In this document: positions 24,180-30,538 of the stretch, piece by piece
How positions within the stretch are numbered: position 1 is the first letter of the stretch
Layout: each line of letters starts with the position of its first letter
Origin: Protoeuglena noctilucae
Lineage: Eukaryota
Assembly (NCBI GenBank): GCA_958009085.1
Contig: OY253680.1
Coordinates: 1-64,000, forward strand
Reading direction: 5' to 3'
DNA length: 64,000 nucleotides
Program-made: the position numbers and the translations under genes
The notes under the pieces: model-generated
Databases searched by the model: none
What the model was told of the DNA's origin: nothing
Seen by the model: only the letters and a program-made list of their open reading frames with translations

Positions 24180-24472
24180 GCTTTTGCCGATGCGCACCCG
24201 TGACGAGGACGCAGTCCCCCGCTCGCGTCCCTGCGGCCCGCCCAGCCCGCAGAAAGCCTCGTTACGCGGAAGCGGTCACTGAGTAATGCACGAGAGAGCC
24301 GCGGATCAAAAGGGCATCGTGGCTGCGGTGAAACTGCCTGGCAATTTCACTGGCACGGAGGTCTGGGAGCGAGCGCAGCGGAAGCAAGAGCGGCGTGTGA
24401 CCTCTCGCATCACTTCAGCGACATCAAGCAAATCGCAGAGTTGCTCGCTGGTGGCACGGAAGGGCTCGCGCG

Positions 24473-25326
24473 ATGGGATTTGCGGTGTTTGGGTTTGGCT
24501 CCATCATCTTCCGTCCCAACTTCGAGTACACGCGTCGCTTCGACGGCTACGTCCGCGACTGGGTCCGCGTCTTCTGGCAGGGCTCCACAGGCACGCGCAG
24601 GCTGCCGCTGAGGCGCTGGCTGTCGCTGTTGGCTGAGCATCCGCCCGTGAGCCCCACCGGCGTCGTTATAGAGCACACCTCGTCGCATCTGTGCCATTGC
24701 AGATCACCGGGGCGTGCCCGGCGCCCCCGGCCGTACGGCAACGCTCGCTTCGTCCCCCGGTGGCGTCTGCTGGGGCACGTGCTTCGTTGTGGAAGCCTCC
24801 GCGGAGCGCGAGGCGGAGATCCTCGCCGAGCTCGAGTGGCGCGAGAAGCAGTATGACCGACGCGAGTATCTGGACGTGTACGTGCCCGGGCAGGACGAGC
24901 CTGCGTGGCGGGGGGCGCTGACCTACATCGCGACGTGAGTGGGGGCCCCGGCAGGCGCTGTGCGCGATATGAGCGCCACCGATTCTTTACATTCCCTCAT
25001 CGCTCGTCAGGGATTCGCCGAGAAACGTGAACTATCTGGGCCCCGCCCCGCTCGGGGCGATTGCCGCGCAAATCGCGCGCAGCGTGGGCCCCTCCGGCCC
25101 CAACTGGGAGTACCTTCTTCGCCTGGTGTCGTACTTACGCGAGATGGGTCTCACGAAGGCAGACGACGAGCACTGTTTCGCTCTGGAGGAGTTGGTGGTG
25201 GCGGAGATGCGGGCGCTGGGCATGACAGCGGCGCTCGAGACCATCGCAGCGGGGATGGTAGCGGCGGCGGCGACGGCGCGGGCGCTGCCGGAGTCGACGG
25301 ACGGCGGTGGGGAGGCGGCAGCGTGA
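24473..25326 (+). CDS. ChaC-family glutathione-specific gamma-glutamylcyclotransferase
   Basis: VFGFGSIIF, RVFWQGSTDHRG (split by GC-AG intron 24591-24702), PGRTATL, LEWREKQY, NYLGPAP, IARSVGPSGPNWEYL. Confidence 0.93.
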
Positions 25327-25436
25327 TGGGGTGTGTTAATTCTCTTGATGCGAACGTTTGATTGAATGCGCCGGCATGCATGCTAGGTCAACTCGCCAGC
25401 TAAGATCGAGCTACCAACGCAACAATAGCTCTGGGC

Positions 25437-25560
25437 AGCCCCTCATCCCTCTCCTTGCCCCTCGCTGTGCCTTGTGTGCAAGTCGCCCCTCACACCAATC
25501 TCCACGTCCCCACGCTCCCTCGCAGCTGCCCTGCCAATGCAACGCTTTCTCCCCCATGCG
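25437..25560. repeat. Diverged direct duplicate of the EamA gene 3' end (28224-28360)
   Basis: ctcatccct...gcccctcgctgtgcc.tg.gtgcaagtc...cccctcacacc.atctccacgtccccacgctccctc.cagctgcc is shared with 28228-28331, with substitutions and one ~15-bp indel. Confidence 0.88.
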
Positions 25561-25649
25561 CCTCACCCACTCCCGCATCCCACCCGCTCACACCCCTCTG
25601 CCTGAATTTCGCCAGCCCCCTACTTCTCCCCCATATACTCGTGACCGGC

Positions 25650-27578
25650 TTAGGACTCACCAAAACCCTCCTCATCTTCGTCGTCTGCCACAGGGTCCCC
25701 GCCTGCCTCGTTCGCCACCTTGGTCTGCTCCACGGCTGCGCAATCAGGCGGAGTGTTTTACTTTTCTCAATAATCCCTGGAAATTACGCAAATTCAGCCT
25801 TAACAGCCCTTGTAACGATATATTATTTCACCTTAGTACTGCTAACAACATTAACATGAATGATATGTTAAATGAACTCACCTCCAGGACTTGTAGAAAA
25901 TTCTCTTTCACAATAAAAAACAATGTCTTTAAAATGCTTCAGATCGTATTTCGCACGCAGTGAGTCGTAGGCCATCCTCATGTTGCTTGCAATCTGCACA
26001 GCTTTCTCTGCAGAAAAAAAGGTACATTACATTATTGGTTGCAGAAGTCAGCCAGGGAAGAGACGCCAACTGTATTTATTGACCTCATCTTACCTCTAAT
26101 CTTCTCGTGCACCCAACAGGCCGGCCACAGCGCATCCGACTCCTCGCACTGTGTCCCGGGCGGGGGAAAGAAGGCAGTGGCCTCGAGTGGGTCGTGGTCG
26201 AACGCTACCTTGGCATCTCGCTGGTCGACTTCATTTGAAAACCTGAAAAGCTTGACGTCGGACAGCTCCACGTGCCTGTTGCCTTCCTTGGGGCACACAG
26301 TGCACACGAAATCGATGATCTCCTCGCGGTCAGCTTTGTAGTGCGGGATGTTGACCCTGCACCAGCTGAAGTCGTGGCGATAAATCGAGGAGAAGTCCTC
26401 TGGAGAAAAGTTAGCATTGCAGCCCATCACGACGGGCATCTGGTACTTGTCCGACAAGGTCGCCAGCCGCGTGCACGCTCCAGACCACAGCCTGCGGGCC
26501 CAAGGACATCGACATAGTAGATAATTTTTTAAAGTGTGTTGCAATTAATAGTAAAATAAAATTTATATATTGGTACCAACATAAGTGAATTATAAGATCA
26601 CTCACCTGTACCTTTGGGGATCAGCCAAACTGTTGTTGGCAGCGTGATAATTGACAGCGATAAAAGTCCAGGACGGGTCTTGTTTGCTCTTGCACTCGAC
26701 GACGAGCATCCTTGCCCCTGTGTCTTGCGTACCAGTCAGGGTCGAAATGTTTTCGCACAGACCTGCCCTTGTCCACCGTCTCTTGCACTTTAAATTGATG
26801 CTTGTTCACCATGTCCTGAACTACTTGGAAATCGTCCGTAATGGCCTTTGCTGCTACTGAAAAAAAGATTAAGGAAGTAATTGTAAAATCTGCTAAACAT
26901 TCAAATTATGATGTAACATACATAAGAGGTATTGATAGCTGCATGAAAGGTTCATCAACAATATATATGTTCTTTATCCCATCGCAGCTTTACTCACTCT
27001 GTGCATCCTCCTTTGCAGTCAACTCGACCAACTCTGATTCGAACCTCTCTGTCTGCACCAACATCCAGAGCTGTTTGGACTGAGTCTTTTTGCCGTCCTC
27101 ACTCAGGGCAAGCAACTTATACTCTTTAGGCAGACATTTTTCCATTGTATCCGCGGCTGAGACCTCCTGCAGCATGACAATGTCGGCGTCTCTCTGATTG
27201 ATTGCCTCCCATACCAAGTCGCGCCGGCCACTGGGTTTAGAAGGCTCGCGACCTCGTCCTGGAGGGACGCTGCCACTTGGCGTAAAATTCGTGAGCCTTG
27301 AGTTGATACTTGCAGCGGGTGTCAGGGGCGTGTTTGGGATGTCTCTGCTTGTTGCGTCTCCGTGCTCTTTTTCTTTCCCCTCGGGGCGCTTCCCGTGTTG
27401 ACGTTCATGGACAAAATCCGCCCGGTACGATATTTATCTGGATTAGTGGCATCCTGCGACCAACGTTCGCGCGGAGGTTGAGAAAGAGGCTCGCACATAT
27501 GTAAAAGACTGTCATGACCATCACCTGCGGCGCCCTTGGGGGCCCGCTCCCGCCGCCTTCGTCGCTCGCGGAAGCCAT
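25650..27578 (-). pseudogene. EEP (exonuclease/endonuclease/phosphatase) domain gene with two frame disruptions, within an AT-richer island
   Basis: Exons ~27578-27525, 27453-26998, 26856-26606, 26491-26094, 26007-25882, 25735-25650 with GT-AG introns in compatible phases. EEP motifs occur in order: RILSMNVN, DIVMLQE, FIAVNYH, PVVMGCNAN (GDxN equivalent), IIDFV, FDHDP. The frame changes once in exon 2 and once in exon 3. Confidence 0.75.
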
Positions 27579-28228
27579 GTCTTGGAATCGTTAGCTGTCC
27601 TCCGGGGCGACGGTGAGATAAGAGCGCAGTGACAGGTCAATGGTCCCACATGGTGGCCCTTGCGCTCGCGCGGTCAAGTATTGCTTACTACGTGGCCCAC
27701 CCCACAGCAATGGCTACAAAACTTCTCTAGGGAGGGCTACGGTTACACAGAAGAGGGGAGGGAGGACAAGGAGAGCGGTGTCATTTAAGCGTCGCGCATC
27801 TCCCCTACGGCCGCTCACCGGACCTCCCAATATCTTCTTCTTGAGTACCGGCCAACGATTTTAGATGAGATGCCCACGATGCTGTGTGTTAATCTTGTTT
27901 TCAGAGATTTATGAGCAAAGATAATGTTTGCCACCTGCTTTCAGTTGCTATGAGGTAAAAATATTCTCCGATTGACACAAAGACTGCGCAGCTTCAGCAT
28001 AGGGGAACCCACCAAGCAGAGGGCAAAACATGGGGCAGGGGCAATTGCCTGCCACGTAGTGCAAATTGTCGCACACGGGACTTCCTCTGTAATATTTGGA
28101 GGGCACCACAGCAGCAAAAGCAGGAGAACATGCTGAGGCTGAGGATGAGCAGCATACGGCAATGTTCAATATCGCCCCTACACAGTAGCTGCGGATATCT
28201 GAACCTGCCTATACAATTGTAAAGCCTC

Positions 28229-30538
28229 TCATCCCTCCCGTCGCCCCTCGCTGTGCCGTGCGTGCAAGTCCGCCCCATCCCTGTTCCCCCTCACACCCAT
28301 CTCCACGTCCCCACGCTCCCTCACAGCTGCCACTGCCGGTGCATAGCTCTGCCCCACCCCACCACTCCCCTCCCGCACTCCCCCACCCTCCCTCTTCTCA
28401 GCCCCACCCGCGTCCCCCTCAATCCCGTCATTCGCACTCGCATGCCCGTTCTCCGCACCATTCTTAGCTTCCCCGATTGTAGGCTTGGCGTCCTTGCCTG
28501 GCGTACCCCTCGCATTCACCGTCACCGCCCCCACCACGATCGCCAGTGCCCCTGTGACTCCCATGGCCGTCAGTGGCTCGCCCAATATGAGAGTGCCATA
28601 GACGAAGGCAGCCACCACTTGGATGGTGTTAATGGCGGCGCCCTCGCCCGCGGGAATGAGCTGGAAGCCTCGCGTCAGCGCCACCTGAGGGGGTGGCAGT
28701 GGGGGTGAGGGTAGCAGTGAGGGTGGTGGTAGTGGTGGTGATGCTGGTAGAAGCCATGATGCGCGAGTGGGAGTGGAGAGGGTGGTGCATAACGCATGCA
28801 CCGCACAGGTAATGCAGCAGAAACAGCCGCGCCCCTCTCCCCATCCATCCATCCACTATCTCCCCATCTCCCCATGCACCACCCCACTGCGTAGAATCTG
28901 CATGCCCCCCTCAACTCACCTGTCCAACACACCACTCCATGCATGCATGCACCACGACCCCTCACCTGCCCCCAGAACGACCCCGCCGTGACGCCCAGCA
29001 GGCACGCCATCTCCCCGGCATTGGGCCACACGGCCGGCTTGGGCACGCCGATCGCGACGAACGGCACCGACGCAAGAAGCGACGAGAAGTGGAACCAGAA
29101 CGCGATGGTGTTGGCGTTCTCTTTGCCACGGAGGAATCGCAGCATGACGAACACGGCGCCGGACGCGAGGGCTGCCAGGAGGGCCCATAACACGCCCGCG
29201 GTGTGGGAGGGGGAGGGGGGGGCGCCGCCGAACAGGAAGGCGGGCTGGGGGGGGTGGAGGGGGAGGGGGTGAACGGGTGAGGGGTGAGAGTGAACGGGTC
29301 GAAGGGTGAGCAAAGTAACTTTAGTAACAGACAAGTGGTTGATGGGTGGACATGCTGCTTCGCCCATCACCCGTGCGTCAACCACGCTCGACACGAGTGG
29401 TACCCCTCTCGCGTGTTCATCACTCACCCTTGACACGAGTGGTACCCCTCTCGCGTGTTCATCACTCACCCTTGACACGAGTGGTACCCCTCTCGCGTGT
29501 TCATCACTCACCCTTGACACGAGTGGTACCCCTCTCGCGTGTTCATCACTCACCCTTGACACGAGTGCTACGCCCAGCAGGCACAGCCCCATTCCCGCCC
29601 AGAGATTCCACGTTGGCGTCTCTCCCAGGATGAGCCAGGACACGAGGGCCACCACCACGGGGTTCCTGGGGAGTGATGAGGAGTGGGTGATGCGATGTGG
29701 GACGGGTGATGCGGTGTGGGTGATGCGGAGAGCAGACATGGAGATGCCACCATTCATCGTTACAAACACACCCGATCGTGTGTCGCGACTCACATGAAGA
29801 AGATGCTCGAGACGTCCCCCAAGGGCAGCAGCGTGAGGGCGAGGTAGAAGGCGGTCATGGAAACCATGCCCATGAATCCACGCCCGGCCAGGAAAAGGGC
29901 ACTGCTGCGCTTGCCGGTGATGGAGTGGCCCCCGCGACGGATGACCTGGGCAGGTGGATGGCATGCTGCAATGTGCGATGCGACGTGCTGTGCGACGTGC
30001 ATGCCCTGTGCCGCTGCGCTTCCTCGCTCACCCATATGGACAGCGCGCAATTGATGACGGATCGGAACGCCACAATCTCGAAGGTCTGCACGCGACTCGC
30101 GACCTTAACCAGGAGCTGGGCGGTGGCAAAGGAAAGGGAAGCGTTGACGATGAGCAGTCGGCCGTTGTTCATGACCGTGTCCGCCACGCGCGAGGCCAAG
30201 GCGCGGATCTCTGCGAGAAGAGGCACTGTTTCGATCGGTCGGCCGCAGACCTCGCTGGCCCATATATACACTGTACTTTTGCTCAGAAGAGGGGCGGCTA
30301 CATTGCTCACGAGAGAGCCATGAGGACGACGTCTCTCCGCCCGAATGCTGCTCGATCCTCTCCGGAGATTCGTCCCCTACCAGCAAATGCGCTTCCTCTG
30401 CGAGGGAGACCGACGGCGGGCCGCAGGTAGGACGGTTTAGTAAGCCCTACGCCTCGCCAGGCCGCGGGCGGTCCGCAGCCGTTGATACTCACCCTCTGAG
30501 CGCTCACTGCGCTCGTCATCAGCTCTGTCTCTCGCCAT
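28229..30538 (-). CDS. EamA/DMT-superfamily transporter (SLC35G-like)
   Basis: FEIVAFRS, LAGRGFMG...FYLALTLLPLGDVSSIFFMNP, LILGE, RPAFLFG, GQVALTRGFQL, QVVAAFVYGTLILGE, i.e. two EamA repeats. About 7 exons; start inferred from the in-frame exon 30538-30493. Confidence 0.9.
29390..29567. repeat. Perfect 42-bp tandem repeat (4 copies + partial) spanning the exon/donor junction of an EamA intron
   Basis: Unit gacacgagtggtacccctctcgcgtgttcatcactcaccctt. On the minus strand each unit contains AGG|GTGAGT. Confidence 0.97.

Follow-up and report, generated by a model that had tools for sequence, protein, structure and literature searches.

The window described here is a stretch of 64,000 nucleotides of Protoeuglena noctilucae DNA (C13:1-64000, from an assembly of 26.3 Mb in 27 contigs) that lies at a chromosome end with CCCTAA telomere repeats and whose sequence was also found in marine metagenomes and metatranscriptomes. 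It contains an island of AT-richer DNA with a gene of the EEP family, enclosed between the end of an EamA transporter gene and a diverged direct copy of that end. An earlier note on this DNA had called the island foreign-looking and proposed an old insertion, with an unusually long target duplication, of a mobile or horizontally acquired EEP nuclease. The compositional part of this description was evident: GC content was 0.502 for positions 25561-28222 compared to 0.645 in the remainder of the window, no other segment of the same length was below 0.575, and the 2-kb minimum over 664 kb of the chromosome (0.494) fell inside the island.

The bracket was likewise confirmed, with a repeat slightly longer than first given. 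Copy X (28223-28403, minus strand) comprises the last codons of the EamA gene, its stop (28229-28231) and 6 bases beyond, and the diverged copy X' (25437-25602, minus strand) lies 3' of the EEP stop, in frame with the last EEP exon, and abuts the end of a transcript contig of the neighboring ChaC-like gene. When aligned, 136 of 163 bases were alike, with a score of 159.5 compared to a maximum of 39 in 100 shuffles. A repeat reaching further, to ~25716 or 25750, by which the last EEP exon would have been recruited from EamA, was discarded, its score being met by 152 of 300 shuffles and by 381 of 3,000 real genome pieces; the shared reading frame of X' and the last exon is the sole relation kept from it. 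Between the two copies lies the inserted segment itself (25603-28222, minus strand; 2,620 bp, GC 0.499), in which ~640 bp precede the ATG of the EEP gene and a short stretch follows the gene on its 3' side.

Island DNA was single-copy in the assembly, and matching it against the genome, as suggested earlier, gave no further copy at the DNA level. In agreement with the earlier note, no reverse transcriptase (RT), transposase, or helicase families were found in the five island open reading frames (ORFs) scanned, and no terminal inverted repeats above those of shuffles were found in the window insert; the longest ORF overlapping the island was 204 amino acids. A metagenome contig (contig 4 of run X5, which comes from one study together with run X7) spanned 24300-28194 with 0 differing letters and 0 gaps, and because of this letter-for-letter agreement the island and the frame breaks in its gene are real and not errors of assembly. 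No joint bridging the island, which would mark an empty site, was found in contigs of 4 of 23 runs.

The EEP gene runs on the minus strand from 27578 to 25648 in six exons, all on that strand. Exon 1 (27525-27578) starts at a predicted ATG at 27578 and was placed from sequence, outside RNA cover. Exon 2 (26998-27453) carries the first-strand motif ILSMN and MLQEV in different frames, with the change falling between ~27395 and 27325; a -1 slippery heptamer was noted by eye close to this change. Exon 3 (26606-26856) carries RMLVVEC and VNYHA, together with a second frame change at ~26800 to 26715 or, alternatively, a weak 53-base intron. Exon 4 (26094-26491), following the phase-2 intron common to the family, contains GCNAN (D read as N), IDF, and DHDP, exon 5 (25882-26007) is by eye unlike the C-terminal domains of the paralogues and has a donor backed by an RNA joint, and exon 6 (25648-25735) encodes an acidic tail and the stop. 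The joint of the last intron (25735/25882) was seen in one RNA contig of run X9, with a depth of 2.67 and 28 letters on its short side, and it replaces the acceptor previously placed at a T-rich AG near 25777. Four of the five introns had a GC content of 0.30 to 0.41 and the first 0.53, compared to 0.56 to 0.67 for seven introns of neighboring host genes.

The six exons of the earlier gene model were retained, and the EEP motifs lie in order. However, exons 2 and 3 match the paralogues only if the frame changes once in each or is bridged there by a weak intron without consensus ends (such introns could bridge both changes, in a region outside RNA cover), and the catalytic GxDxN motif, GCDAN in four paralogues, is altered from D to N. 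RNA from the island was thin, amounting to the one spliced joint and two unspliced contigs with a depth of 3-4, all from run X9, and absence of cover elsewhere is uninformative. Judging from these alterations, we read the window copy as apparently decayed, although its 3' end is still transcribed.

The check by profile and structure that the earlier note had called for gave a divided answer on the EEP identity. While the Pfam EEP match to the window gene was sub-threshold (E 0.01), a profile of the N-terminal half, built from five sequences including paralogues, had 12 matches in the PDB at E ≤10, and all 12 were EEP proteins, the best being TDP2 (E 0.003). The C-terminal half profile and P0014 had 0 PDB matches, fold predictions were of low confidence (pLDDT 38.6 and 30.8), and Atlas feature matches of 0.92-0.93 to EEP clusters are a lead only.

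Protein searches of the genome identified five paralogues of the window gene, located on C14, C19, C13 (at ~924 kb, here C13b), C11, and C5, with 25-40% protein identity. Since these searches score the best candidates alone, the resulting family of six is a lower bound; a further candidate at C17:573 kb gave no profile match and was not included. AT-rich patches were present at every paralogue, coding GC was 0.52-0.56, and no nucleotide similarity or common ends were found between paralogues. Their introns have ordinary GT/GC-AG ends, and the one after the N/S-Y-H-G strand is common to the family, with the acceptor located by script in 6/6 and the phase-2 donor in 5/6, the sixth donor (C11) being supplied by the spliced product P0015. 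The EEP motifs N - QE - H/Y - GxDxN - D - DH were complete and in order in C19, C13b, and C11. In the other three, catalytic motifs were altered: D to N in the window, loss of QE and a change to SH in C14, and AH in C5. The strand itself reads N/S-Y-H-G/A in 6/6 paralogues, compared to VYAP or VYMP in 3/3 APEs of resident long interspersed nuclear elements (LINEs); we take the former to be of the His type and the YxP strand of LINE APEs to be of the Tyr type.

The C-terminal parts varied. By eye, C14, C13b, and C11 have one common unknown domain, which the domain search did not detect, the C5 paralogue ends in a SAP domain, and the C19 paralogue runs into a giant DUF3638/DUF3645 reading frame. 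From the splice sites we infer that the latter is a putative EEP-DUF3638/DUF3645 fusion; a DEAD match in this insert was sub-threshold and fell inside DUF3638. In this reading the family is small, fast-evolving, and domain-shuffling, and it is probably a nucleic-acid phosphodiesterase, perhaps with a defensive role. Two peculiarities of single members were also recorded. In C11, the second exon is interrupted by an in-frame stop (L012:5455-5480), yet spliced products of the exons downstream occur in public protein collections, and an intron of C13b (L011:4300-4460) holds a long AT-only tandem array, with 12% GC in 300 bp.

The bracket recurred at two of the five paralogues found later, giving 3/6 loci in all. 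At C13b (C13:922-927 kb), the insert is 3.9 kb long, and the repeat around it, of 305-323 bp (272 of 304 bases alike), duplicates the 3' flank of an F-box-ankyrin gene, beginning 52 bases past its stop. At C19, where the insert is 13.2 kb long, a repeat of ~120 bp (88 of 117 alike) duplicates the region around the stop of the upstream gene, which is ankyrin-like by eye. All three brackets copy the end or 3' flank of an upstream, co-oriented host gene; their lengths are ~165, 305, and 120 bp, their identities 75-89%, and each scored far above 100 shuffles. The loci at C14, C11, and C5 showed no bracket in ~18 kb each, with coverage reaching further downstream than upstream, and a repeat with a score of 38.5 against a shuffle maximum of 35.5 (L026) proved to be a short GC-rich match and was not counted. 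Among the three inserts, neither common ends, inverted repeats (compared to shuffles, 3/3), nor a target motif were detected. This recurrence supports the old insertion with long target duplication that had been proposed, and we hold with high confidence that the island is such an insertion, whoever made the cut.

At one junction of the C13b insert (L011:6796-6838, C13 ~926.6 kb), a GTGAC...GTCAC hairpin is followed by three CCCTAAA units, a triplet that is the sole exact copy in the assembly; no repeat of this type was found at the window junction. Healing by the host telomerase was rejected as its source, as the host unit is CCCTAA and not CCCTAAA.

The shared reading frame of X' and the last EEP exon could also be explained if nothing had been inserted and an EEP-host gene pair had instead been duplicated in tandem, with later deletions leaving one host gene, one EEP gene, and a fragment of the host gene end; the short C-terminus of the window copy is what a fusing deletion would give. 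However, two clean deletions would be needed at each of three loci, and neither the window nor the surroundings of the youngest bracket showed a remnant of a second EEP gene, and we consider this history hardly probable at all.

The background of spaced repeats was surveyed in 664 kb of C13, the chromosome of the window. There were 16 direct repeats of ≥70 bp with a spacing of 0.8-20 kb, one of them being the window locus. Twelve of the other 15 were read (of the unread three, two share a G-rich partner with read pairs and one lies in a coiled-coil region that was read), and 11 of these 12 were low-complexity or internal protein repeats; no other gene-end bracket around a gene was seen among the spaced repeats of the 664 kb. 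At C13:79551-81519 (L028), a GC-rich single-copy gene piece, presumably resembling the C-terminal half of Rad17, is preceded by short copies, in swapped order, of its 3' end (88%) and of the flank downstream of it (74%), without an EEP gene and away from the 3' end of any upstream gene. The piece nonetheless shows that duplications of this sort are made by the host, a point against a mobile element as their cause. Six other AT-rich clusters showed no flanking repeats beyond low-complexity matches, and since all six are intron-rich host genes, AT-rich introns alone are no mark of foreign DNA. Zero simple brackets in 664 kb bound the genome-wide number at ~119, and from this the chance of ≥2/5 paralogues being bracketed was calculated, by hand and with 5-kb segments, as ~0.5%. 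The association of the bracket with the EEP family is therefore real, whatever its cause.

The introns and upstream DNA kept inside the inserts indicate that the genes moved as DNA and not as mRNA. Moreover, brackets with 75-89% DNA identity, set against paralogues with 25-40% protein identity, argue against a copy-and-paste burst: they are much younger than the paralogue split, which implies that each insert came from a different, long-diverged source of which no donor is left. The pattern fits relocation within a fast-evolving family better than a replicating element, and the mobile element family of the earlier note was not substantiated, the DNA being single-copy and the paralogues having diverged long before the duplications, without common nucleotide similarity or ends.

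We give about even credence to the explanation that these are long-duplication DNA insertions made by host break repair and tolerated at gene ends, with the EEP gene as a passenger. The 3' end of a host gene would be opened by a pair of breaks offset by 120-320 bp, or by a switch of replication template to the same effect, a DNA piece with a whole intron-containing EEP gene would be joined in, and fill-in would copy the offset stretch; a replication template switch gives the same picture as offset nicks with fill-in. Inserts at gene ends would survive, as the stop codon of the host gene is preserved and the inserted gene finds a 3' end already in place, and the placement at gene ends could thus most simply reflect a survival filter. 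EEP genes would be relocated by host repair in moves that each leave no donor copy, and the window copy would have decayed after its insertion. The cargo of the inserts varies, with DUF3638/DUF3645 in C19 and, at another paralogue (C5), a terminal SAP domain. Several observations weigh against this explanation. The bracket is concentrated on the EEP family (2/5 later paralogues, compared to none in 15 other spaced repeats and 0/6 AT-rich clusters), the passenger itself has a nuclease fold whose catalytic motifs are all kept in the bracketed C13b and C19 copies, and no donor region was found. In addition, the background covers just ~3% of the genome, and the comparison of 3/6 EEP loci with 0/6 AT-rich clusters is not significant alone (p 0.18).

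The same concentration, together with the nuclease-type fold, the intact motifs in C13b and C19, and the SAP DNA-binding domain on one paralogue, would be in keeping with the reading that the EEP protein mobilised its own gene, by nicking a host gene 3' end at two offset sites and moving the gene as DNA (by cut and paste or as a circle) for the host to join, without RT or a classical transposase. Long target duplications of Dualen LINEs are ascribed to their APE plus restriction-like endonuclease (RLE) in PMC9977147. However, the inserts lack conserved ends, a target motif, and recent copies, the strand is N/S-Y-H-G and not the VYAP/VYMP of the genome's LINE APEs, the closest PDB neighbors are TDP2 and CCR4, catalytic motifs are altered in 3/6 copies, and the non-EEP duplication at C13:79551-81519 shows that the host can make such copies. 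We consider self-mobilisation unlikely on balance. Marginally less probable still would be its extension to an undescribed class of eukaryotic mobile DNA, consisting of intron-containing genes with an EEP nuclease as sole enzyme, which would nick near gene 3' ends at sites 120-320 bp apart and integrate as DNA. Since the duplication would restore the host gene end and provide a terminator, such an element would need no terminal repeats, RT, or transposase, and if true, the class could carry large cargo, for example, the 13-kb DUF3638 fusion.

Few homologues were found outside this genome. When 1.84 billion representatives were searched by profile, 6 proteins were obtained, of which 5 are this genome's copies or within one residue of them; the remaining one, P0006 (E 2e-7, motif GGDMN), comes from a short contig and matches none of the six. 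Word-index searches gave no match outside this genome, which is weak evidence, and a metagenome locus (L087) was a chance word match in an AT-rich contig without EEP motifs. Viral contigs (0/34 candidate stretches matched) and PHROGs (nothing below E 0.04) were equally negative, both being weak tests for so divergent a family. Repeated horizontal arrival, in which breaks would each time have captured a chromosome fragment from a different eukaryote or from a virus of it, would suit the coding GC of 0.52-0.56, a value exceeded by 360 of the 361 long GC-rich ORFs that served as a rough reference, and the CCCTAAA units at the C13b junction. We nevertheless regard it as distinctly improbable, as no donor and just one outside homologue (P0006) were found, third-position GC of 0.61-0.75 overlaps the host range, and the intron ends are ordinary. 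The horizontal origin raised earlier thus remained unsupported, and of the "foreign-looking" island the AT-richness held, whereas AT-rich introns also occur in host genes of this chromosome. Among the latter, a gene at C13:174.7-177.9 kb (L038), which from its motifs we take to be a valyl-tRNA synthetase, has AT-rich simple-repeat introns and near-duplicated exons.

Finally, the inserts could be what is left of a LINE of the long-duplication type, such as Dualen, or DNA that such a LINE carried along. APE-RT LINEs are present in the genome, and duplications with a median of 900 bp for Dualen and of 126 bp for R9 are reported in PMC9977147. Against this, introns and upstream DNA are retained, a poly(A) tail and RT are absent, and none of 10 resident APE-RT LINE copies had a long host duplication, common words of >15 bases deriving from the element's own tail. 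The family also aligned weakly to LINE APEs (hhalign probability 2.6-31.6), and we judge a LINE origin very improbable. Other elements were noted along the way. An 8.8-kb APE-RT-RNase H LINE family occurs on C15, C17, C6, and C20 (L092-L099), with copies 96-99% identical and a CAT-repeat tail; 4/6 copies read lie directly downstream of tRNA-like genes (tRNA by eye), and copies are often nested in their own fragments. On C19 at ~118-146 kb (L105, L106, L102), a Polinton-like element of 40-55% GC, with an rve integrase, helicase-like and ATPase-like ORFs, and matching ends (middle part unread), is interrupted by an 8.8-kb LINE.

Both genes flanking the island in the window are spliced and expressed. 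The EamA gene (28229-30311, minus strand; Pfam EamA) had five RNA joints in runs X9 and X10, which come from one study, and its first exon continues past 30311; at 29398-29574, one of its introns holds a tandem array of four units of 42 bp, which is an open-frame multiple of three and is removed by splicing in RNA. The convergent ChaC-like gene (24428-25431, plus strand; Pfam ChaC) was covered by RNA contigs, and its transcript contig from run X10 stops at 25431, 6 bases short of the end of X' at 25437.

Returning to host repair, templated insertion, whether at a break or through a replication template switch, is a host-made process that places distant DNA with a flanking duplication and without element ends. 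The EEP inserts would resemble it in these respects, but it is not known to have placed one gene family repeatedly at host gene 3' ends. With the TDP2/CCR4/ExoIII branch of EEP proteins the family has in common the ordered N, QE, H, GxDxN, D, and DH motifs and the 12/12 PDB matches of its N-terminal half; it differs in being too divergent to assign (best E 0.003) and lineage-restricted, with varied C-terminal domains and altered motifs in 3/6. With APE-type non-long-terminal-repeat elements it has in common the long, variable target duplication (3/6 loci), while no RT was found in the window island ORFs, the five introns are kept, and there is no 3' tail or YxP strand. As regards cut-and-paste transposons, no inverted repeats above shuffles (3/3 inserts) and no transposase family were detected, and as regards Helitrons, Helentrons, and Replitrons, no HUH Rep or conserved termini. 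The near-identical dispersed copies of an active element were not found, the DNA being single-copy and the paralogues 25-40% identical.

Long duplications of this kind have precedents. In PMC9977147, the Dualen (RandI) LINEs of Chlamydomonas are described with long target duplications (median 900 bp), ascribed to two offset nicks and fill-in, the R9 ribosomal DNA LINE of rotifers is cited with a 126-bp duplication, and Replitrons are described as moving at the DNA level in algae with variable-length duplications. Like Dualen, as far as it is described there, the EEP inserts encode an EEP-fold protein and lie next to a direct duplicate of host DNA that is ≥100 bp long and varies in length; unlike Dualen, they are without RT, RNase H, and RLE, keep introns and upstream DNA, have a His-type strand, and are single, long-diverged copies. 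The duplication length is in the range of R9, but R9 is a site-specific retrotransposon, whereas the three EEP targets are unrelated genes and the lengths differ. With Replitrons, on the same account, DNA-level movement and variable-length duplications are in common, but not a HUH Rep, conserved ends, or a multi-copy family.

No description of a stand-alone EEP element with long duplications was found in the literature searched, of which coverage was partial. If host repair is responsible, the bracket is a readable and scannable signature of whole-gene relocation in compact genomes; if the EEP protein drives insertion, this would be a mobile element of a new kind, whose integrating nuclease leaves long overhangs, and the question is open to direct test with the two paralogues whose motifs are intact. 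Duplications of ≥100 bp are described for a few LINEs in PMC9977147; here, they flank RT-less, intron-containing genes and always copy a host 3' end. The system behaves like a Dualen- or R9-type long-duplication insertion, yet it stands outside LINEs, terminal inverted repeat transposons, Helitrons, and Replitrons.

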